Positions 525 to 32,973 of a stretch of 38,517 bases of DNA are shown here, piece by piece. How positions within the stretch are numbered: the first letter of the stretch is position 1; the number at the start of each line of letters is the position of its first letter. The notes below the pieces were generated by a model. That model made no database searches and was not told where the DNA came from. It worked only from the letters and a program-made list of their open reading frames with translations. The stretch comes from a virus. Lineage: Duplodnaviria > Caudoviricetes. The position numbers and the translations under genes are program-made. The stretch is taken from positions 1 to 38,517 of IMG/VR virus record IMGVR_UViG_3300048599_000148, one strand, 5' to 3'.

Positions 525-3455
525 TTAGCCGCCCACGACTTGCGACGGCGGCAGGATGAATTCCTGGCCATCGCGGTTTTCTTTCAAGCGCTCTTCCATG
601 CGCCGCATATAGCCCGGCGAGACAGCTTCCTGCAGCTGGTACAGAAACAGATAATTCATGGCCAGGCGCGTGTAGAACAGATTCACAAACGGCGTATTGT
701 CGACGGCCAGACCGAAGGACTGCCCGGCCGCATCGCCCAGATCGCCATCGCGCGCCGTTGCGAAGATCTTCAGCAGGCGCTCCAATTCACCGACCGCAGG
801 CCCACCGAGCGCACCAATAGGCGAGCGACCTTGTCGATCGTAAGATCCGAAAATGAAATCGCCATAGATCCCGGCGCCGCCGCCCTGGATGAACGATCGC
901 AAAAACACCTTTCCATTGGGCGCGCCATTTTCATCCTGCAGCGGTTGCGGCTCAAGGCCGCGCGCCAGATCCTTCATCACCGTGGCGACATAACCAAGCC
1001 CCGTGGACGCCATCATGAAATGCGCCAGCGGCGCATAGGCTTTCAGCGAGCCGCGATCCGACATAGCCTTGGCGAACGCCGGTTTCAGATGGCGCACCAC
1101 CACGGCCGTGGGAAAGCTCTTGAACTGCATGAACAATTCCAGCGCCGTGCCAGCGGCCGTTCCCGTCCGCGTGCCCATACGCAACGCGGCGCGCTCACGC
1201 GCGCGCGGCTCCGTCATCGCGGTGTCAATCTGATCGGTGAAATAGGCCTGCGCCCGCAGCAGCAATTCGCGTTGCGCGTCCTGCATATCCTCCGCGCGAT
1301 AGATCCGCTTTATCTTCAGCTCACGCGCAAAGGTTTCCAGCTTGATGCCGTTCAGCACATCGCGGCCGATCGCGCCGCCTTGCCGCTTGGCCGCGTCGCG
1401 CATCAGGCCAAACAGCTTTGGCGTTACCCCGGCTTTTTCCAGGGTCTTGCGCTCCGCCGGCGGTAGCTTTGCCCAGGTGGCGTCCGCCGTCACCCCATAG
1501 TCCAGCGCTTCCCCGATGCGCTGGCGCGCCAACTGCACTTCCGCCGGATCCGGAATCGTCTTTTTCCCGGCCCATTTGGCGGCCGCATCGCCGGCGATCT
1601 GTTCCGCGGAATCGGGCGTGATCACCCATTTTCCGTTCACCTCGACGGCATTGGCGCGCAGAAGATCCCAGGCGTCGGCATCAATGCCGTAGCGCACCAG
1701 GGCTTCCCGCGACGCCTCATCCAACGCGCCATGCGCCAGCTCGCGCAGACCGCCCAGATGGTGCGCCAGGATAGACGCCGCGCCAGCGCGGATCCGCGCT
1801 TGCCAGAACCCGAAAAGGTTCATCCGATAGAAGAGGCGCTGCGCCTTGAAGGTCCAGCCCAGGTTCGCGTCCGGCGCCACGAATTGCGCGGCAATGTCGC
1901 CGGCCATGGTCGCCGCGCCTTCGCCCACCAGGTTCGCCACTTCGCGCTTGGCCACCGGCTCCATGCCCGCCACGGATCCGATCAGACCGGAATAGATGTC
2001 CAGATAGGCGACGCCGGCGCGCGAAAGCGCCTGCGCGCCATTGCCCAGATCCGTGACGCTGGAAAAGATCATGCCGCCCAATTTGGCCAGGCCTTGCTGC
2101 GTCCGGATTGCGCGGCTGACCGTGGCGACGCGATGGCTTTCCGGCATTTCCGCCGCGCCCGTCAGCTGATCAAACTCGCCCTGGCGCAAGCCGGACTTCA
2201 GGCGCTTGATTGCGTCAATGTCGTTTTTCTCGCGCGCCGCGTCCGTCAGGCGCTGCCGATCAGCCATAAATGCCGCTTCCGGCGCAGGCCCGAAGGTGCG
2301 CATCAGCGCTTCAGTGCGTGATGATCGTCCGAGGAAGGACAGATGCGCCACAAAGAGCGATCCGGATCCAAATTCCCGATTGTACGCAATCCACGAATCC
2401 GCATCCGCCCAATGCAGCACGCGCCGGCGGGACAGCGACCTGGCCAGCGACGCCGGCGGCGTAAATCCGTCCAGATCATTCACATCGTCAGACGCGCCCT
2501 TGCGATAGCCGGACACAATATCGGTCCAGATCTGCGCCAGAAACTCGCGCCGCGCCTTCGCGATTTCTGCATCAGCCATCGCCGCGATCTGACGCTGGAT
2601 CTGCGATTCTATAGGCGGATTCTTCTTGTCGTATTGGGCGCGCAGCCCCTCTTCCAGTTTTGTCAGCGCCGATTCGTCCACCGCCTCAAATGTGCGTTCA
2701 TGCAGCCGCGCCTGGACAAACTCGATCCACCTGGCCTTGGCCAGCTCGCGCGCCTTGGCGTTCATGCCTTTGAAGAAACCGCCGCTGATCTTGATCGGAT
2801 CGTGCATGGTCCGGCTGATATAGCCCGGCAATTCGCCGATCCAGGCGCCCAGGCGATTCATGCGCTGGCGCGTCCGTTGCTGATCGCGCACCACGGCTTC
2901 CGCCACCTTGCGCGCCATCTCATCCTTGGACGGCGCGCGCTCTTCACCGTTCAGGCGCGCCACTTCGCGCGCCACTTCGTCTTCAAAATCGCGATCCGGC
3001 GCGAACGCACGGAATGGATCCGCGAGGCGGGACAGCGCGCCGACTTCATCCAGCTCTTGCGTGAAACGCGATCGCGCTTCCACTTCGGCCGCCTTGCCTT
3101 GCGCATCGACGGAGAAGCCGCGCCGCGCGCCGGCCTTTTCCGATCCCACCATCAGGGTTTGCAGCGCATCGGCGGAATCGCCGGCATGGCCCGCATAGAA
3201 TTCCTTGCGCTTCGCGCCGGCGAGCGCCGAGGCCGCTTTAAGCCGCGCATCAATCAGATCATCGCGCGCGCGCTCTACCACATAAGATTGCCAGGCCTCT
3301 TCCCACAGATCCTTGTCCGCTTTTTGCGCGCCGGCGCTGCCCCGCTTCAAACGCTGAAAACGCGCCGTCAGGCGGCGCAGCATGTCGTCAATTTCATCGT
3401 CCGTGAACACATCACCCACAGCCGCGCGAATAGGCGACGTACAAACGCGGCTCAT
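525..3455 (-). CDS. Large internal virion (ejection) protein, T7 gp16 position
   Basis: 976 aa, alpha-helical, with C-terminal hydrophobic segments (FKSFP, GGGAGIYGDFIFG, NTPFVNLFY) as in podophage internal core proteins; last of the ejection-protein genes. Confidence 0.7.
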   Translation of the reverse strand: MSRVCTSPIRAAVGDVFTDDEIDDMLRRLTARFQRLKRGSAGAQKADKDLWEEAWQSYVVERARDDLIDARLKAASALAGAKRKEFYAGHAGDSADALQTLMVGSEKAGARRGFSVDAQGKAAEVEARSRFTQELDEVGALSRLADPFRAFAPDRDFEDEVAREVARLNGEERAPSKDEMARKVAEAVVRDQQRTRQRMNRLGAWIGELPGYISRTMHDPIKISGGFFKGMNAKARELAKARWIEFVQARLHERTFEAVDESALTKLEEGLRAQYDKKNPPIESQIQRQIAAMADAEIAKARREFLAQIWTDIVSGYRKGASDDVNDLDGFTPPASLARSLSRRRVLHWADADSWIAYNREFGSGSLFVAHLSFLGRSSRTEALMRTFGPAPEAAFMADRQRLTDAAREKNDIDAIKRLKSGLRQGEFDQLTGAAEMPESHRVATVSRAIRTQQGLAKLGGMIFSSVTDLGNGAQALSRAGVAYLDIYSGLIGSVAGMEPVAKREVANLVGEGAATMAGDIAAQFVAPDANLGWTFKAQRLFYRMNLFGFWQARIRAGAASILAHHLGGLRELAHGALDEASREALVRYGIDADAWDLLRANAVEVNGKWVITPDSAEQIAGDAAAKWAGKKTIPDPAEVQLARQRIGEALDYGVTADATWAKLPPAERKTLEKAGVTPKLFGLMRDAAKRQGGAIGRDVLNGIKLETFARELKIKRIYRAEDMQDAQRELLLRAQAYFTDQIDTAMTEPRARERAALRMGTRTGTAAGTALELFMQFKSFPTAVVVRHLKPAFAKAMSDRGSLKAYAPLAHFMMASTGLGYVATVMKDLARGLEPQPLQDENGAPNGKVFLRSFIQGGGAGIYGDFIFGSYDRQGRSPIGALGGPAVGELERLLKIFATARDGDLGDAAGQSFGLAVDNTPFVNLFYTRLAMNYLFLYQLQEAVSPGYMRRMEERLKENRDGQEFILPPSQVVGG

Positions 3456-6190
3456 GTATTGCCCCCAGATCCTGGCCCAGAAGAACCTGGCCCATATTGC
3501 AGACAGAAAGCGGCCGCCTTGATCGCGTCGAATAGCTTGGCGTTCTTTTCGGGCGTCATGCTTGGCGCCAGGGCGGCCGCCGCCTCCGCCGTGTCGATCG
3601 CGCCGGACTCCGCCAGGCGCGCCACATCGTCCTGGACGCTGGCTACCTCGTCCGCAATGCCTTGGATTTCTGCATTGAGCTTGGAAATTCTTGGATCGAG
3701 CGCCCCACCATTCGCCGCCGGCGCGCCCGCTCCTCCGCCGCCTTCGCGTCCTCCGCCGCCTTGATCGCCGTTTGGCGCGCCTGATCGCTCAGATCCACCA
3801 GGCTGCTGGGAAATGCCAGCGTCGTCGAATAGCCCAGGCTCTTGACGTAAGCCGCGATCGCCGCCAGCTGCGCCGGCGTCAGATAATTGATCGGGAAGTA
3901 ATACACCATCGCCCCCTTGGTTTAGCGGGCGCTCTTGTCCAGATCCGCCAGCACCCGTTGCATCAGCGCCGACGGCGCCGGATCCGCGTTCCGCAGCGCC
4001 GCCGCCATTGCCTTCGAATAACCCGGACTGAACCGCCCCGGACTCGCGGCCGGTTGCTCTTGCGGCGGCGTCGAAGGCTTTGGCGGGCGTGATTCTTGCG
4101 TCATCGAATAAAACAGGCTCCGGACTGGCTAAGGCCGCTTTAGCATAGATCTCGAAATTTTCGGCGATCTTAACGCGGGCGCGCACCCGGCCGGTTTTAT
4201 CGTCCACCATCAAAAGCAGGATCTGCAGCGTTTCGCCGGACGGCCCGCCGCCAAACATGTCGCCTTGGCTTTCCAGCTCGCTCAACAGGGTGCGGATCGA
4301 TTTTCCCGCCTGGCCGGCGCGGCGCATCAGCGCCATGGCGGCGGAGATATGCCCCCGCAGATCAAATTCCGCGCCCACCTGGCCAGAATCGAGCGCATCC
4401 GCCAGGCGCGCCATGATCGGCGCCGCATCCTGCAGCGCCCCGCCGGCCGTCTTCAGGGTTTCGTCCAGATCCTCAAACCGCGCGGAGATCACGCGTTCAT
4501 CGCCGTAAGCCTTGGCCATCAGCGCCGCTTCCAGGCGTTGTTCGCCCGCCTTGGACAAGCGGCCGCTGGAATCGATCAGCGCGCCCCGCTCTTGCTCAGT
4601 CGTCAGCGCCTCGATCGCCGCGCGCTGGAAATGGACGTTTCCGGCCATGCCGGCATCGCCGCCTTGGTGCAGATCGAGCACGGCGGCCGACAGGCGGCGC
4701 GCATCGGAAAACGCGGTTTCCGCCGCGCTCATCACCGCCGACGCCGGTTTGTTGAGATCTTCCGCAAAGCGCACCCGCTGCGCCGGCTCCCGCGTCGCCG
4801 GCAGCACGCGCACCAGGACAGGATTTTTTACCCCGTCCACCGGATAGCCCTGCGACTTCAGCCAGGCGCGCATTTCTTCGGCGCGCGGATCCCCGCCGCG
4901 ATAGGCGCGGCGCAGCCAGATGGTGCGGCCGTTGCCGCTTTCCACCACACCGTCCGATCCGATCACCGGCGCGCCGGAATCGCCCTGCGCCGTCTCGCCC
5001 CAGCGCGCCGGCTGGAAAGGCTCGCCAAACTTGCGCACCTGCATTTCCGACGCCGCCCGCGTGCGATCGCGCGGCTGCATCGCGCCGGGATAATCAGGAT
5101 TGACGGTTAAATCGTCACCATTGGACGTCACCAGATCTTCCACGTCCACGATCGCATAATGGCCGGCCTCCGCCATGCCGCCGGGGGAATAGACGTCCGC
5201 CGGCTTCAGCTTCCGCACTGGAATGTCCGGCCGGCCGGCGATCTCCGCCAGCTTGGCCTCATCCACGCGCGAGAACACGGGCGCCACGTCCACCGGCTCA
5301 CCCGCCGCCAGCTGACCGATTGACGCCGCCGTGGCGGCTTCCCTGGCCTCCTGTGGCGCGTTTGCGACCCGATCGGGCATTGGCTCCACCCGCGCTTCAG
5401 GTTCGGGCGCCCTGGCCGCTTCCAGCGGATCCGCGCCGGCCAGCACGCGCGGCCCATCGATCGCGCGGCCGCCGCCCTCCAGCGCGCCGCCAAGCGCGCC
5501 GCCGGCGCCGCCCAGAATGCCGCCCATCGCCACATTGGCCAGCGCGTCCGTGAATTCATAATCCCGCCCCTCGCGCCAGGTCATCAGCGGATAGGCCGCC
5601 AGCTCATAGGCGCCGCCCAGGATCGCGCCTTCAGAGACGCCCAGCACCGCACGGCCGAAAACCCGCGTGGCCAGCACCTCAGAGCGCGCCAGCGAGCCCA
5701 GCGGCTTCACCGCCTTGGCCAAAAGGCCCAGCTCGCCCATCGGGATGGCCGCCAGGCCCCATTGCACGGGATCCGTCATGGATCCGGCGAAGCTGGATCC
5801 GAACACGCGAGCGCCGCCCCAGAAGCCCTTGGTGGCCGACGAACGCGCCAGCGCGTCATCGGCCGCCAGCTCGCGCTGTTTGATCGCCCAGCGCTCCGCC
5901 GCATAGGTTTCCGACACGCGGCCGTCAAAGCTCAGCGCGTCTTCAATCCCATAAAGATCGTTCGCCTCTTCCGGATCCAGCATCCGCACCGCCGGCAGCA
6001 TGCCCGTGCGCTGGCCAAGCACGTCCACGCCTTGCTTGGCGGCGCGCAGGATCAGCGGCCCCAGCGACTCTTCCGCCGCCATGTCAAACGACGACTGAAA
6101 CGCGTTTTCGCCGGGATCGCGCGTGGGCGCCAAGGCCTGCAGCTCGCCTTCCGACGCACCCGCCGGATCATTGATCAGCCAGCCAGCCAT
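3452..6190 (-). CDS. Internal virion / polyvalent protein with a DdrB-like ParB domain
   Basis: 912 aa with an N-terminal Gly-rich hydrophobic region. The central segment YAIVDVEDLVTSN...NPDYPGAMQPRDR...GAPVIGSDGVVESGNGRT matches the ddrB-ParB signature as I recall it. Confidence 0.75.
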   Translation of the reverse strand: MAGWLINDPAGASEGELQALAPTRDPGENAFQSSFDMAAEESLGPLILRAAKQGVDVLGQRTGMLPAVRMLDPEEANDLYGIEDALSFDGRVSETYAAERWAIKQRELAADDALARSSATKGFWGGARVFGSSFAGSMTDPVQWGLAAIPMGELGLLAKAVKPLGSLARSEVLATRVFGRAVLGVSEGAILGGAYELAAYPLMTWREGRDYEFTDALANVAMGGILGGAGGALGGALEGGGRAIDGPRVLAGADPLEAARAPEPEARVEPMPDRVANAPQEAREAATAASIGQLAAGEPVDVAPVFSRVDEAKLAEIAGRPDIPVRKLKPADVYSPGGMAEAGHYAIVDVEDLVTSNGDDLTVNPDYPGAMQPRDRTRAASEMQVRKFGEPFQPARWGETAQGDSGAPVIGSDGVVESGNGRTIWLRRAYRGGDPRAEEMRAWLKSQGYPVDGVKNPVLVRVLPATREPAQRVRFAEDLNKPASAVMSAAETAFSDARRLSAAVLDLHQGGDAGMAGNVHFQRAAIEALTTEQERGALIDSSGRLSKAGEQRLEAALMAKAYGDERVISARFEDLDETLKTAGGALQDAAPIMARLADALDSGQVGAEFDLRGHISAAMALMRRAGQAGKSIRTLLSELESQGDMFGGGPSGETLQILLLMVDDKTGRVRARVKIAENFEIYAKAALASPEPVLFDDARITPAKAFDAAARATGRESGAVQSGLFEGNGGGAAERGSGAVGADATGAGGSGQERPLNQGGDGVLLPDQLSDAGAAGGDRGLRQEPGLFDDAGISQQPGGSERSGAPNGDQGGGGREGGGGAGAPAANGGALDPRISKLNAEIQGIADEVASVQDDVARLAESGAIDTAEAAAALAPSMTPEKNAKLFDAIKAAAFCLQYGPGSSGPGSGGNT
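3643..3909 (-). CDS. Nested (overprinted) small ORF, 88 aa, +1 frame inside the ParB-domain gene
   Basis: AAGGGGG lies just before the ATG. Codons are host-like (CTG, GCG, ATC, AAG, TTC) while the outer frame here uses rare TTA/GTA/CTA. Confidence 0.6.
   Translation of the reverse strand: MVYYFPINYLTPAQLAAIAAYVKSLGYSTTLAFPSSLVDLSDQARQTAIKAAEDAKAAEERARRRRMVGRSIQEFPSSMQKSKALRTR
3922..4104 (-). CDS. Nested small ORF, 60 aa, same +1 frame, directly upstream of 3643..3909
   Basis: Upstream GGAG and a TATGCT -10-like hexamer (4147..4142). The second half has GC3-rich codons, and the stop is 12 nt before the next nested ATG. Confidence 0.45.
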   Translation of the reverse strand: MTQESRPPKPSTPPQEQPAASPGRFSPGYSKAMAAALRNADPAPSALMQRVLADLDKSAR

Positions 6191-23554: not shown

Positions 23555-23794
23555 TCACATCCTTTCCGTCCGCGCAGCCCAGGGATTTTTCTTCCCGGCC
23601 TTGGCGTAAAGATCCTTCAGCCAGGCTTCTGCCGGCGCATCGAGCGTCGCCGCTTCCAAATCCGCTACGGGCACGCCCTCCGCTTTGGGCTCGCTCCGGC
23701 CATCGCCGGCGATCGCCGCAAAATTTGGCGCGGCCCACGGCCGGAATTTCACCTCGATGGCGCCGCGAATTGTCTTTTCCGTCGACTCGCTCAT
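23555..23794 (-). CDS. Hypothetical phage protein (79 aa)
   Basis: GGAGG RBS and ATGA overlap with the gcrA-like gene; MSESTEKTIRGAIEVKFRPWAAPNF. Confidence 0.65.
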   Translation of the reverse strand: MSESTEKTIRGAIEVKFRPWAAPNFAAIAGDGRSEPKAEGVPVADLEAATLDAPAEAWLKDLYAKAGKKNPWAARTERM

Positions 23795-24603
23795 GCCGCG
23801 ACCTCCTCCGGCTGATAGCGCGCCCGCGAGCGCTCCAGATGATCCTGGCAATAAGGATGCGCCTCGCCTTCAACGATCGGCCGGCCGCAGCAGCGCGTTT
23901 GCTCGCGCGCGGTAGGGCCAAGGATCCAGGCGCATTCATTCCATTGCCGCTGATCAAACAGGATCCCGCCTTTCACCACCGGCGCTTCAGCGAACGGAAT
24001 GGCCGCGCGCACCCCACGCAACGCATCCTGCTGCATTGGCAAATTCAGACGCACAGGCGCACAAGTGAATTTTATTCCCAATCGCGCCGCCTTACCAATT
24101 ACCGCGCAACGAGACATCCCAAGCGCTCGCGCAGTCGCGCCACCGCTTTCACCTTCCGCCGCCATGCGCCGCAGCGTCTCGATCGCTTCATCCGGCCAGG
24201 CCGCTTCGGCGCGGCCCTCATTACCGAGCAGATCCACGCCCAGACGGATCGCCTGATTTTGCACCGCGCCTTTACCGCAGCCCAATTCCTCCGCGATCAT
24301 TCGCGCCGAAGCTTTTTCGGCCACCCGAGTGCGCAAATAGGCGCTGCGCTCTTCCGTCCAGAATCCGATCCGCTGCCTTTGCGCCGGCGGCGGCGGCGCG
24401 TTCGTCTTTCGCTTGCGCGCCGCGTGCGTGCGCTGATGATTGATTTGCTCAGCCGCCGCCTTGATTTCGACGGCCGTACACCCCGGCCAAAGATCCTGCA
24501 GATCATGCGCGATCCGATACGCCTTCAGCCCGGCGATCGTCTGGCTGGCGATCACCGCTTGAATTTCCTTTTCCTTCCCTTTTGGCATCGCAAGCTTGCC
24601 CAT
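23791..24603 (-). CDS. gcrA: GcrA-like regulator with a duplicated N-terminal domain
   Basis: Two copies of the GcrA N-terminal motif (WTEERSAYLR...SARMIAEELG...AIRLG and WPDEAIETLR...SRCAVIGKAARLG) plus the C-terminal CAW.LG...CG.P.....PYC..H motif. Confidence 0.8.
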   Translation of the reverse strand: MGKLAMPKGKEKEIQAVIASQTIAGLKAYRIAHDLQDLWPGCTAVEIKAAAEQINHQRTHAARKRKTNAPPPPAQRQRIGFWTEERSAYLRTRVAEKASARMIAEELGCGKGAVQNQAIRLGVDLLGNEGRAEAAWPDEAIETLRRMAAEGESGGATARALGMSRCAVIGKAARLGIKFTCAPVRLNLPMQQDALRGVRAAIPFAEAPVVKGGILFDQRQWNECAWILGPTAREQTRCCGRPIVEGEAHPYCQDHLERSRARYQPEEVAA

Positions 24604-29108: not shown

Positions 29109-29345
29109 TCAGTTGATGATGGATTGCCCCAGCAGCGTGGTGGTGAAGCCGTGCGCGCGGATGTCGCCGCGCTCCGCCAGGTGGCCCAGCTCTTCCAGAA
29201 CGCCTTCGAATAATTCCGGATCGGCGCCCGTCATGCCGATCTGCACCGCGCCCGATGGATCCAGGCGCAGCACCAGAAATTCAGCGTCCGGATCCCGGCG
29301 CGCCGCGTTGCTTAAAATCCAGGTGAGGAGAAGCGCGGCGCTCAT
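29109..29345 (-). CDS. Hypothetical protein (78 aa)
   Basis: GAGG RBS; ATGA overlap with the cro stop. Confidence 0.6.
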   Translation of the reverse strand: MSAALLLTWILSNAARRDPDAEFLVLRLDPSGAVQIGMTGADPELFEGVLEELGHLAERGDIRAHGFTTTLLGQSIIN

Positions 29346-29611
29346 TCGACCACCTCGCCATTGCGCGGCGCGAATTCTTCCAGGACCAGGGCGATCCCGC
29401 GCTTTTTCGCGTTCGCCACCATGCGCAGCTGCGCCGACATAGGAACCGCGCCGCCAGTCCCGCCGCTCTTCCGCGGCTTTAACCATTCGTAAAGGCGGCG
29501 CGGATGCCGGCCTGCTAGATCTGCCGCGACATCGAACCCCCCGAGCTTGCGGATCACGCGCGCGGCTGGCGTGTTGGATGTTTGCAGAACGGCGGGCAGC
29601 GGATGCGGCAT
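29342..29611 (-). CDS. cro: Cro-like HTH regulator
   Basis: PAARVIRKLGG..VAADLAG....LYEW.......GGTGGAVP; divergent from the CI-like gene. Confidence 0.75.
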   Translation of the reverse strand: MPHPLPAVLQTSNTPAARVIRKLGGFDVAADLAGRHPRRLYEWLKPRKSGGTGGAVPMSAQLRMVANAKKRGIALVLEEFAPRNGEVVE

Positions 29612-29707
29612 TGCTTAATCCGTTTTCACGAAAATCGTCAATCTCTGTAATACCAATTTTCAGTTTTCGTCAATCAATGATTGAACGAAACTTTCCACAA
29701 TAGGGGC
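29612..29707. promoter_or_regulatory. Lysis/lysogeny switch region with operator-like TTTCACGAAA sites and TTGACG -35 boxes
   Basis: AT-rich; TTTCACGAAA at 29624..29633 with variants near 29665 and 29681; TTGACG occurs twice on the minus strand. Confidence 0.7.
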
Positions 29708-30283
29708 ATGCGTGGAAAAGAGATCAAACGCCTGCTGAAGGAACGCGGCCGCTCGCAAGCCGAGCTGGCCCGCTTTCTCAACAAGACGGACGCCAGCGTG
29801 TCGCGCCTGGTGCGCGAGGAGCGCGAGGCCAAGGCGTCCGAGGTGGCGGCCATCCGCGACTTCTTCAATCAGCCGCCCGAGGCCGCCCCGATCCGCAGCG
29901 GCCATGCCGGCGTGATCCCCCTATATGGATACGCCGCCGCAGGCGACGGCGAGCGCATCGCTATGATCCAGGAACAGGTTCTGGAATGGCTGGATCCGCC
30001 GGACATTCAAGGTCGCGCCAACGCCACGGCCGCCTTCCGGGTATCCGGCGAGAGCATGGAGCCCCGCTTGTTCGCCGGCGAGCTTGTCTATGTGGCCTTA
30101 GGCCTGGCGCCCGCGCGCGGCCAGGATTGCATTGTGGAGCTGCAGGACAACAGCGCGCTGGTGAAGACCTACGATGGAAGCCGGGATGGCCGGATCTATC
30201 TGAAGCAATACAACCCCGACAAGCAGCTGGCCTTCACATGGGACCAGATGCGCGGACTCCATGCTGTTGTGGCCCGCGCATGA
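29708..30283 (+). CDS. cI: CI-type repressor (XRE HTH plus S24 peptidase)
   Basis: SQAELARFL...ASVSRL HTH, AAG cleavage-site region, catalytic Ser in VSGESMEP and Lys in LVK. ATG at 29708 preferred over TTG at 29681. Confidence 0.92.
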   Translation: MRGKEIKRLLKERGRSQAELARFLNKTDASVSRLVREEREAKASEVAAIRDFFNQPPEAAPIRSGHAGVIPLYGYAAAGDGERIAMIQEQVLEWLDPPDIQGRANATAAFRVSGESMEPRLFAGELVYVALGLAPARGQDCIVELQDNSALVKTYDGSRDGRIYLKQYNPDKQLAFTWDQMRGLHAVVARA

Positions 30284-30292
30284 TCGCAAATA

Positions 30293-30340
30293 AACCGTGA
30301 AATTCCCTGATTGACGTTTGCCGTTTTTCGTGAAAGTTTC
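30293..30340 (+). promoter_or_regulatory. Promoter/operator for the rightward early operon
   Basis: TTGACG at 30311 and TTTCGTGAAA at 30326..30335, the same dyad as in the cI/cro region. Confidence 0.65.
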
Positions 30341-30366
30341 CGCCTCCTTAAGCAAAGGAGGCCGCA

Positions 30367-30786
30367 ATGGCGCGCGAAAAGTCAGACCAGACACAAACAA
30401 ATGATGAGGCGGAACGGGTCGCCAACACCACCCAGCAGGCGAGCCAGGACGCTGGCGCCGCTCAGGACGCGAGTGGATCGCAAGACGGCCTTTCCGAAAA
30501 TCGAGACGGCGACGGAATCGAAGACGCCACGGACCCGGACGATCTTCTGACCGACGACGAACGCCAGGCCGCCGCGACGGCGCAGGCGCAACAGCGCGAG
30601 CGCACAGGCCTGGCCCTGTTTGAAATGCGGCCCATCAGCGAATTGGCCATGAACTACCGCAAGCTGGCCGACGAAGGCCGGCTGGACTCCCGCACGTCCG
30701 AGCTGTTCGCCGGCGTGATCAGATCGCTCGAAGCGATTTCCGAACAGCTCGACGAACTCCGCGCCGTAACGACTCCCCCCCTCTAA
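30367..30786 (+). CDS. Hypothetical protein with an acidic disordered N-terminus
   Basis: AAGGAGG RBS; 139 aa. Confidence 0.75.
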   Translation: MAREKSDQTQTNDEAERVANTTQQASQDAGAAQDASGSQDGLSENRDGDGIEDATDPDDLLTDDERQAAATAQAQQRERTGLALFEMRPISELAMNYRKLADEGRLDSRTSELFAGVIRSLEAISEQLDELRAVTTPPL

Positions 30787-30854
30787 CGGCGCGCGACAGG
30801 CGGCGCGCGCAATCCCGTGGCGCGCGCCGCCGCTTTCTTCCTGGAGGTTTTGCA

Positions 30855-31121
30855 ATGATCGATCTGGAAACCATCGACTACTTGAACGGCAAAGTCCGCC
30901 TGCAGACATTTCAACCCGCCGCGATCGATACGTTTTTTGAAGTCGATAAATCACACGAAGGCCGACCAATCACACGCATCTTTGTTCGCGGCGGCGTAAG
31001 CTGGGACGCCTACGTGACGCGCGCCGACCTGGCGCAGCAGATCCGCGCATTCATGGCCGAAGGCACAGAGCGCGACGAAACCGCACCCGGCCTATTTCAG
31101 ATTGAGTTCGGCGGCCGCTAG
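30855..31121 (+). CDS. Hypothetical protein (88 aa)
   Basis: GGAGG RBS. Confidence 0.75.
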   Translation: MIDLETIDYLNGKVRLQTFQPAAIDTFFEVDKSHEGRPITRIFVRGGVSWDAYVTRADLAQQIRAFMAEGTERDETAPGLFQIEFGGR

Positions 31122-31125
31122 CGCC

Positions 31126-31413
31126 ATGCATCGCCTCCCGCCGGCCAGAAAATTCAATCCCGACACCGGGCCACAATGCGCCTGGTGCCGGGAGTATCTG
31201 GAAGATGCGCCGCTGACGCTCAGCGCCGCGATCGACGGCGTGCACTTCGACGATTCTCTGCGTCTGATCCTGGCGGATTTTGATGTGGACTGCCCCAGCT
31301 GCAGCCGCCCGAACAAGGTGCGCCTTTTGTTGCCCGGCGACAGCACCCAAAGCGGCGAGGTTGAAGCCCTACGCACCGACAAGGACAAGCGCTATCTAGG
31401 CGAGGCTGACTAA
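31126..31413 (+). CDS. Small zinc-binding protein
   Basis: CAWC...CPSC; TAATG overlap with xis. Confidence 0.65.
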   Translation: MHRLPPARKFNPDTGPQCAWCREYLEDAPLTLSAAIDGVHFDDSLRLILADFDVDCPSCSRPNKVRLLLPGDSTQSGEVEALRTDKDKRYLGEAD

Positions 31414-31724
31414 TGTCTGGCGTCTATACCCTCCGCGAACTGACGGCCTTGCTAGGCTACAAGGACCGCGACTCCTTCCGCCTGCATCGCCGGCGGATCG
31501 AGGCGCAGGGCTTTCCCGCGCCATTGCCGGGATCCACGCATCCCCTGAAATGGTCGCGCGCCCAGGTGGACGCCTGGCTGGAAAATCCACGCCCGGCCCA
31601 GAAAAAAGTCGCAGAGCAAAAGCCCGGCGCGCCCGCGCCGATCGACGAATTATCCGCCGCCCGCGCGAGAATCCGCGCACGCTTAGGCCAAGAAATATCG
31701 GCCGCGACGCATCCCGGCAGCTGA
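31413..31724 (+). CDS. xis: Excisionase / AlpA-like winged-HTH protein
   Basis: YTLRELTALLG...GFPAP.....LKWSRAQVDAWL; upstream of the integrase. Confidence 0.75.
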   Translation: MSGVYTLRELTALLGYKDRDSFRLHRRRIEAQGFPAPLPGSTHPLKWSRAQVDAWLENPRPAQKKVAEQKPGAPAPIDELSAARARIRARLGQEISAATHPGS

Positions 31725-31730
31725 CTTTCA

Positions 31731-31766
31731 TTGACGATTAACGTGAAAGCGCAATCATTCGCGAAA
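31731..31766 (+). promoter_or_regulatory. Integrase promoter overlapping operator-like sites
   Basis: TTGACGATTAACGTGAAA matches the reverse complement of 29624..29641 at 16/18 positions; a second site ATTCGCGAAA lies at 31757. Confidence 0.6.
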
Positions 31767-31782
31767 CAGCGAAGGCTATCCC

Positions 31783-32973
31783 ATGTCGAAAATCGCAAAA
31801 AGCAAATCCGCCGCCGCCAAGGCGAAGGCGTTCAAATATCTCTCCCCCGTGCTGGAACGCGGCGAGCAAATTGGCTGGCGCTTCAATCCGGGGCCAGGCC
31901 TGCGCGATCGCGGCGTGAAGTCGCAAGTGCTGCGCCATGAAAAGACCGGCGCATGGCTCACCCTTGAAGAGGCGCAAGCCTATCGTGACGCATTGCTGCA
32001 GGGCCACGCGCCGAAGGTGAAGGCGTCCGCCGCGCGCCAGGAGCCCCGCACCTTGAATGCTTTGTGGGCGGACTATCTGCGCTCGCCGGCGTTCACTGCC
32101 GAATATGGCGTGCATGACGAGGCGCTGCGCGCCGATACCCGCCGTTTTTACAAATCCATGGTGAAACGCTGGCTGGACATTTCCGGCACGGAGCTGGTGG
32201 CCGCGCTCGATCAGGATCTGATCAGCGAGTGTTATCAGGAAATCAAGGCGGCGACGTCGCACCATACCGCGCATGCGTCCCTTCGCGCGCTGCAGGCCGT
32301 CCTGGCGTTTGGCGTGAAGAGGCGCTGGCTTGCATCCAACCCGGCTTTAGGCCTTGGCCTGTCCCGTCCGGAAGGACGCCTGCGCCTTGGCACGCCAGAA
32401 GAAATGGCGGCGCTGGTGGCGGCCGCCGATGCGCTCAACCTGTCCGGCATTGGCGATGCGATCGTGGCGGCGCTTTGGACGGCGCAGCGCCAGGCCGACA
32501 TTTTGAAAACCGATCTTGGCCGCCAGTTCGACGGCGAGTTTCTATCCTACGGCCGCACGCACACCGACGACACCAGCCAGCAGAAGACGGCCGCCCAGGT
32601 CCTGATCCCTGTCATGGCGCCATTGCTCGAGCGCATCGACGGCCGCCGGCTTGGCGCCCTTGCGCCGGCGCAGGATGGCCTGTTCTGGAATCCGCACACA
32701 TTCCGCCACCGCTTCGCGGACGTGCGCGCCAAGGCGGCCGAGGCCGTCCCGAGCGTGGCGGATTTTGAATTTCGGGATCTGCGGGACACCGCCGTGACGC
32801 GCCTGTTCGACGCCGGCAAAAGCGAGCTGGAAATTGCGCAATGGTCCGGCCACAGCCGCAAGAGCGTGGGCGACATCCTGCAGAAACACTATCTGGTCAC
32901 GAACCGGGAAAAGCAGCGCGAGAGCGGCGCGGACTTCGAAGCCTGGCGCCAGCGCAAAGGCATCAAATATTGA
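31783..32973 (+). CDS. int: Tyrosine recombinase / phage integrase
   Basis: TAQRQADI (catalytic R), FRDLRDT (H/RxxR), WSGH and KHY (catalytic Y); adjacent to attP. Confidence 0.93.
   Translation: MSKIAKSKSAAAKAKAFKYLSPVLERGEQIGWRFNPGPGLRDRGVKSQVLRHEKTGAWLTLEEAQAYRDALLQGHAPKVKASAARQEPRTLNALWADYLRSPAFTAEYGVHDEALRADTRRFYKSMVKRWLDISGTELVAALDQDLISECYQEIKAATSHHTAHASLRALQAVLAFGVKRRWLASNPALGLGLSRPEGRLRLGTPEEMAALVAAADALNLSGIGDAIVAALWTAQRQADILKTDLGRQFDGEFLSYGRTHTDDTSQQKTAAQVLIPVMAPLLERIDGRRLGALAPAQDGLFWNPHTFRHRFADVRAKAAEAVPSVADFEFRDLRDTAVTRLFDAGKSELEIAQWSGHSRKSVGDILQKHYLVTNREKQRESGADFEAWRQRKGIKY

Follow-up and report, generated by a model that had tools for sequence, protein, structure and literature searches.

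Two probable small genes nested in the +1 frame behind the DdrB-ParB module of a phage virion protein gene, the first a possible inhibitor of that module

Small genes lying wholly inside larger ones are known in phages. In the lambda spanins Rz/Rz1, the small gene lies within the larger one on the same strand and in the +1 frame, and the two products work together. Pairs in which one partner neutralises the other include epsilon-zeta and toxSAS, which are type II toxin-antitoxin or polymorphic-toxin immunity pairs. The DdrB-like ParB domain occurs in polyvalent proteins of phages in a late-gene context, and in the passages devoted to it injection and nucleoside triphosphate (NTP) sensing or degradation were proposed by inference (Iyer et al. 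2017, PMC5512222). In phage P1 (NC_005856), the small gene iddB is annotated wholly inside ddrB, and both are given as non-essential in the part of the source that concerns them (PMC10695390). In this study, a 38,517-nucleotide stretch of viral DNA (Duplodnaviria; Caudoviricetes; IMG/VR record IMGVR_UViG_3300048599_000148, positions 1 to 38,517), called the window below, was analysed around the gene at 3452..6190 on the minus strand. From its open reading frame (ORF), its PF18763 match and its gene neighbours, this gene is predicted to encode a 912-residue internal-virion (ejection-module) protein with a DdrB-like ParB module. Behind the module, two ORFs are nested in the +1 frame: orfA (3922..4104, minus strand, 60 residues) and orfB (3643..3909, minus strand, 88 residues). 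Both were found very probably to encode real proteins. Moreover, orfA may be a dedicated partner and inhibitor of the module encoded just upstream, and the full explanation, with two translated nested proteins and this role for orfA, is given a probability of roughly 0.47.

The 912-residue protein shares with the proteins of PMC5512222 the domain PF18763, the conserved arginine and the late-gene context; those proteins are polyvalent, whereas only one Pfam domain is present here. It is a solo form, below the 2-15 domains of a polyvalent protein, and many of its relatives are polyvalent. In the main text of that paper the words "overlapping", "linker", "frameshift" and "iddB" have 0 occurrences, and in its passages on this domain cognate immunity genes are not proposed. 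The P1 gene iddB is similar in being a small gene wholly within a DdrB-ParB gene, but it is antisense and lies within the module (residues ~185-318), whereas orfA and orfB are on the same strand, in the +1 frame and after the module. Rz1 is a lipoprotein with a lipobox cysteine, whereas orfA and orfB have neither a cysteine nor a lipoprotein signal; furthermore, the outer reading here is a spacer between virion-protein domains, and two nested genes stand in tandem. The likeness to toxin-antitoxin pairs lies in a small helical gene adjoining an enzyme domain, with different small neighbours for different modules, but here the small gene lies inside the effector's own frame, half of the ParB modules lack orfA and neutralisation is predicted only. 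Embedded genes are therefore already known (Rz/Rz1, P1 iddB), and what is new is same-strand +1 genes nested after a DdrB-ParB module, of which no description was found in the portions searched of open-access papers and preprints, subscription papers and supplements lying outside this scope. Gene callers discard such frames, and so a small phage protein family has been absent from annotation.

Both ORFs lie wholly within another same-strand open frame, 12 nt apart in the +1 frame of 6190..3452, where +1 stops fall at 4131, 3924 and 3645; this agrees with the initial annotation, which had also claimed a frame switch in codon bias and dual coding. With eleven clear genes of this phage as reference, the codon adaptation index (CAI) of the nested frame was 0.65 for orfA and 0.67 for orfB (0.80 in the orfB core), against 0.40 and 0.37 for the outer frame of the same DNA and 0.70-0.75 for outer residues 1-640. 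When the outer protein was held fixed and its codons were redrawn from phage usage, 0 of 2000 draws for each ORF were as low as the observed outer CAI. The +1 frame itself fits phage codon usage, and the switch was borne out by both measures, the bias lying wholly in +1 over some 130 codons. When the entire window was scanned, orfA and orfB were the top-scoring same-strand nested ORFs of the virion-gene block. The length of the ORFs was rejected as evidence, because openness of the +1 frame is expected from linker composition: recoding of outer residues 696-850 gave a mean of 1.99 +1 stops with 2 observed, so that ORF length is within chance and the case rests on the codon signal and conservation. 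When the nested proteins were recoded synonymously, the outer frame stayed open in 15% (orfA) and 22% (orfB) of recodings, or about 3% for both. Taken together with the +1 frame kept in relatives, the CAI and the recoding tests support the claimed dual coding, and orfA and orfB very probably encode real small proteins. The orfA product would have a Ser/Pro/Lys-rich N-terminus followed by two predicted helices and a net charge of +3, and the last ~20 codons of orfB shadow the C-terminal helix of the outer protein. Above cut-off, neither Pfam nor PHROG gave a family for orfA, orfB or the nested proteins of relatives, rows for cytochrome c and herpes US8A being at chance level, and the ESM Atlas gave no usable match for orfB or for one orfA-family member.

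The outer frame reads the nested genes as a linker (residues 713-832; 3695..4054, minus strand), first described as Gly/Asp-rich; this holds for glycine (32%, with alanine at 14%) but not for aspartate, at only 7%. As also claimed, the outer frame stays open and resumes a helical C-terminal segment (3452..3694, minus strand), in which the outer CAI recovers and which ends in an AAxC motif common to short family members. Compensating frameshift errors, named at the outset as a possible refutation, were looked for in contigs of four studies, ~92-99% alike, and none was found. The gap-free pieces of these contigs tile 3483-4481, with no single listed piece spanning all of it, and the nested region is therefore not an assembly slip. 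Insertions at 3724-3729 in one run are absent from a long contig piece covering that spot and likely came from short foreign matches. The differences between these strains were also compared by codon position, using 3 in the nested region and 27 outside it from 40 listed (77 further ones being unlisted), and leaving out 10 listed rows near the gene end or in a stretch matched by other organisms. Among the listed differences, 25 of the 27 outside fall at outer third positions, whereas all three in orfB fall at nested third positions (two synonymous, one Asp to Glu) as against 2 of 27 outside (p 0.002, a small sample).

For conservation, 190 related loci were gathered; together with this phage, 181 of the 191 have the ESGNxR anchor and form 90 clusters at 70% identity. 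In a test free of codon models, +1 ORFs with an ATG, a Shine-Dalgarno match of at least 4 nt and at least 40 codons were binned by distance from ESGNxR. Such ORFs were present 270-310 codons past the anchor in 33 of 83 eligible clusters, as against 1-8 of 51-90 in 13 other distance windows, and the +2 frame gave 0 in the same test. The +1 frame is thus kept open in homologous genes, with its own start, Shine-Dalgarno motif and stop, and the orfA-type family extends to at least one third of the DdrB-ParB clusters sampled. Its peptides have a Ser/Pro/Lys-rich start and a helix-turn-helix pattern and are basic, mostly +3 to +7. With seeds chosen by eye, profiles built with one cluster left out put the ORF of that cluster at the top of 55-260 six-frame segments in 22 of 36 clusters, and all matches of the core profile at E<0.01, four unseeded loci included, are nested in +1 at the orfA position. 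Furthermore, a search started from orfA itself gave 11 loci, with the ParB motif 287-290 codons upstream in all nine examined. The distance of orfA to the module is fixed regardless of what follows, whether tails of 60 or 2000 residues, and none of the 191 loci showed a free-standing copy. The proposal that orfA travels with the ParB module therefore stands, as the core-profile matches and the orfA-seeded hits all lie at a fixed place after it. On a module tree built by a quick method without bootstraps, orfA presence was clustered (12 changes versus 28.9 when shuffled). A profile search of 1.84 billion representatives gave 16 matches, most of 50-63 residues; one protein, P0034, has 99 residues and carries the orfA hairpin twice in tandem.

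Among the relatives, L190 and L004 stand closest to this phage, and its orfA core can be aligned with the +1 peptide of each (z 5.9 for L190, z 4.2 for L004), with 0 of 300 shuffles reaching either value; the L004 ORF ranked first in the leave-out test. On these alignments, this orfA is joined to the family by position and two near relatives, not by profile. In L190 (6781-7005) orfA apparently starts at a TTG behind GAGGAGG, and the ATG of this phage sits at that Shine-Dalgarno site. An orfA-like nested +1 ORF also lies upstream of a ParB domain in L119 (1109-1285), and a further nested +1 ORF follows orfA in L049 (7255-7380).

The nested genes had been regarded as overprinted inside the outer gene, and this order is probably reversed. 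In overlapping genes, the frame with typical codon usage is taken as the older one. In clusters with orfA the outer CAI falls from ~0.76 to 0.5 while the +1 frame rises to as much as 0.72, and in clusters without orfA both are flat, a comparison that is partly circular through the choice of seeds. Among short proteins ending in AAxC, the tail measures 433 codons with orfA (n=10) and 382 without (n=18), and 496 in this phage; the linker occurs mainly where the small gene is and is thus probably the newer frame. L047 has an intact orfA-like gene ~290-350 codons past the ParB motif, and its outer frame meets a stop within that gene; this may be how the arrangement looked before nesting. Taken together, codon usage, the length of the linker and L047 suggest that the small genes are older and that the Gly-rich linker is read-through. 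Conserved outer helices share their DNA with the first ~20 codons of orfA and with the last ~20 of orfB, and there the outer frame is likely the older. In the probable origin, a module with its small partner gene would have lost its stop codon and become fused to downstream parts, trapping the small gene inside. If true, this shows that nested genes can arise by read-through fusion, the long frame being the newer of the two.

The second gene, orfB, has a single homologue, P0030, 60% identical (E 3e-17), with in-frame insertions and with start and end in common. Viral contigs yielded no match when searched with the outer protein as a single query, with orfB, or with an alignment of orfB and P0030. 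A two-gene operon had been proposed, and orfA and orfB do stand in tandem here, but the pair is not conserved, other relatives having a different second gene or none; orfB, which has no enzyme module adjoining it, is likely a lineage-specific passenger on the same transcript. A different second nested +1 family, of 121-129 residues, occurs just before the SNF2/ResIII helicase module of long relatives (L030:6346-6732, L035:6289-6660, L037:7183-7545, L040:4043-4429, L041:5418-5804, L058:6349-6735 and L066:6325-6702) and matches no Pfam or PHROG family. In it the nested frame is clearly better conserved than the outer one (313/295 against 57/568). As judged from these sequences, selection on the nested frame is clear only for this 129-residue family of the relatives.

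The case for an internal promoter is weak. An AT-richer patch at 4142..4172 (minus strand) holds TAAGAT (4172..4167) and TATGCT (4147..4142), the only two sense-strand TAnnnT hexamers of the gene, as a possible internal promoter. Of the promoter claimed initially, the TATGCT hexamer is present, and family members with orfA have higher promoter-like scores ahead of it (6.67 versus 5.62 in control stretches over 150 nt, p 1e-6, n=36), whereas clusters without orfA gave 5.34 versus 5.50 (n=38); but a sigma-70 scan gave no site at 9/12 or better, and a Caulobacter-type promoter motif was not enriched. TATGCT was rejected as a selected -10 box, since it encodes Tyr682-Ala683, with the tyrosine conserved across the family, and the codon TAT stands there in 19 of 32 orfA-bearing rows and in 21 of 31 that lack orfA. 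An internal promoter upstream of orfA is nevertheless plausible from the scores. None of the sequencing runs listed as containing this sequence is of RNA. The weak Shine-Dalgarno motif of orfA, GGAG at 4118..4121 (minus strand), lies 13 nt ahead of the start, with an AT-rich run behind it; the corresponding site in relatives holds stronger motifs. For orfB, the AAGGGGG said to precede ATG 3909 was found at 3918..3912, on the minus strand in the 12-nt spacer.

PF18763 (ddrB-ParB) is the sole Pfam domain of the 912-residue protein, at residues 344-462 (4805..5161, minus strand; E 8e-26, 91 bits against a cut-off of 27.6). Its QPRDR and ESGNxR motifs are invariant, the latter, with the conserved active-site arginine, across 102 aligned rows. 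The AlphaFold2 model of the ParB module had a predicted local distance difference test (pLDDT) score of 95, with ParB-N, KorB, PadC and sulfiredoxin as best structural matches (Z 5.8-7.5, root-mean-square deviation 2.6-3.3, 81-100 aligned residues); Foldseek with the module gave nothing at E 0.001, and the VIA-align Z values were all below 8. A helical second domain at residues 537-712 (4055..4582, minus strand; pLDDT 93, last helix 88-95) ends in a conserved LF motif and helix 702-712, with L694, F695, A705 and F706 hydrophobic in 97-100% of 86 rows. The outer-gene neighbours match internal virion, head and tail PHROGs (phrog_684, 992, 418 and 376), a late-gene context that points to a virion location of the protein. 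A complex model of module residues 332-688 with orfA gave an ipSAE of 0.83 in three runs, while the best of three controls gave 0.00. Of 157 solved pairs 116 reach the mark applied, as do 2 of 215 mismatched ones; with the alignments used here these counts are only approximate. The runs agreed in at least 67% of contacts, and the partner pLDDT was 68-69. In the predicted interface, orfA residues 25-55 lie on outer residues 608-686, in the helical domain and not at the ParB site.

From these observations the following mechanism is proposed. The stretch 4104-3643 would be read in two frames, of which +1 gives two separately translated small proteins, while the virion protein reads the same DNA as a Gly-rich spacer and thereby keeps its C-terminal segment. 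The module, from its fold and gene context, is a predicted NTP-binding or NTP-hydrolysing enzyme that would be delivered at infection. The orfA product would be a binding partner devoted to this module and its inhibitor: its helix hairpin would settle on the helical domain, at a distance from the ParB active site, and might so restrain the module in a lysogen, while late synthesis goes on, or on injection of the copy of a related phage. If orfA does bind the module, it offers a handle on DdrB-ParB activity and would account for the Gly-rich linkers in polyvalent proteins.

The initial annotation had suggested that orfA is a cognate inhibitor; the orfA-module complex model passed, but the construct lacked the last helix of the module and about half of the modules have no orfA, and this role is put at a little under one half. 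Several further observations tell against it. The modelled module ended at residue 688, whereas the omitted LF motif and helix 702-712 belong to the domain, whose real end is at about residue 712, and the predicted contact surface is about as hydrophobic whether or not a module has orfA (p 0.44; for core residues, p 0.07). Thus, in the model orfA may just fill a groove that the cut exposed and that the module's own last helix would cover. Of the 27 residues that separate modules with and without orfA, only 3 lie in the predicted interface, so that they do not cluster there. Moreover, 41 of 86 clusters have no orfA and keep intact catalytic motifs, so that orfA is not obligatory; measured against toxin-antitoxin pairs of type II, there is a small gene adjoining the putative toxin domain, but the domain also occurs without its supposed antitoxin in these 41. 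P1 ddrB has no orfA by the position and profile tests. In the leave-out test the orfA of this phage came 192nd of 225, and the core profile missed it; the seeds had been chosen by eye. Between close pairs, the orfA frame frequently shows no stronger conservation than the outer one (56 synonymous and 167 replacement codons nested versus 68 and 171 outer; pairs mixed). Its Shine-Dalgarno spacing is poor, no strong promoter was found, and the toxicity and enzyme activity of the module are themselves predictions.

Several of these points fit another explanation, somewhat unlikely: both nested genes would be genuine, but a permissive linker would carry them as passengers, and their products, made in the lysogen, would serve in superinfection exclusion, anti-defence or regulation without touching the ParB module. 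The half of the modules that lack orfA, the basic charge of orfA, which would suit a nucleic acid or an acidic host protein, the promoter-like scores raised only where orfA is present, and orfB standing without an enzyme module are all consistent with it, as is a temperate lifestyle, indicated by the integrase, excisionase and CI-like repressor (divergent Cro-like/CI-like pair, excisionase and integrase at 29342-32973 of the window, in a podovirus-type genome). A mere passenger would fit poorly with the fixed orfA-module distance, the lack of free-standing copies in the 191 loci and a complex model that passed while its controls gave 0.00. A role for orfA as a chaperone of assembly or loading, produced along with the late transcript and swapping places with the last helix so that the protein is packageable or inactive until ejection, is clearly improbable. 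The predicted orfA site may coincide with that of helix 702-712, and the gene lies in the late internal-virion block; but many virion modules do without orfA, the signs of an internal promoter favour expression apart from the late genes, and a coupling analysis of where the last helix packs came out at chance level (3 of 20 top couplings).

Two further explanations deny the nested frames a present role as separate genes. They might be remnants of once separate genes, captured by read-through and no longer expressed here, as the weak Shine-Dalgarno spacing and profile divergence of this orfA and the +1 openness expected from linker composition would allow. This is very unlikely, given that start, Shine-Dalgarno motif and stop are kept across distant clusters, that the listed differences of strains 92-99% alike fall at nested third positions in orfB, and that P0030 keeps orfB at 60% identity with in-frame insertions. 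The complete move of codon bias into +1 for ~130 codons could also arise if a programmed +1 frameshift or an assembly error put the nested frame into the main protein. The gap-free contig pieces of four studies, the three +1 stops, the conserved ATG and Shine-Dalgarno motif and the return of the outer frame to the C-terminal motif of its family make this extremely improbable.

A partner role for orfA is favoured by other effector modules with their own nested neighbours. Zeta and alarmone-synthetase toxins are known to depend on antitoxins. In the same loci a nested +1 ORF follows 7 of 10 zeta-toxin domains and an antisense nested ORF flanks 7 of 11 RelA/SpoT-like domains, counts that come from loose thresholds and related loci with no null. 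The +1 ORFs directly after zeta-toxin domains (L016:4786-4965, L142:5810-5983, L045:6330-6440 and L024:8260-8454, also in L023, L025 and L055) encode 37-65 residues, most with a strong Shine-Dalgarno motif, and are candidate antitoxins. Those beside RelA/SpoT-like domains, on the minus strand (L180:5709-5939, L134:7263-7430 and L120:5136-5390, also in L011, L081, L099 and L152), are candidate antitoxins of small alarmone synthetase-like effectors; P0008 has the same shadow sequence. It is tentatively proposed, at rather less than even odds, that polyvalent virion proteins are cassettes in which each enzyme module has its inhibitor gene out of frame in the adjoining linker: orfA for DdrB-ParB, the +1 gene after zeta toxins, the antisense gene beside RelA/SpoT-like domains and the 129-residue gene before SNF2 helicase modules. 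If true, "disordered linkers" would be hidden immunity genes, effectors would be shuffled between virion proteins together with their antidotes, and lysogens would gain module-specific protection against related phages.

Some minor features were also recorded. Nested +1 ORFs lie before DarB-like methylase regions in L126 (9191-9502) and L099 (8935-9231); we take them to be TnpV-like by eye, although Pfam gave no TnpV match. Another follows a JAB-like domain, recognised by eye, in L044 (7156-7326). Within the 912-residue gene, the outer CAI dips to 0.51-0.59 at 5230-5470 of the window, in a Pro/Ala-rich spacer ahead of the ParB domain, and the +1 ORF at 5559..5206 was rejected as a nested gene because it reads as a shadow frame. 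In the early region, a GcrA-like domain (PF07750) is encoded at 23791-24603 of the window and, together with the nearest relatives, suggests an alphaproteobacterial host.

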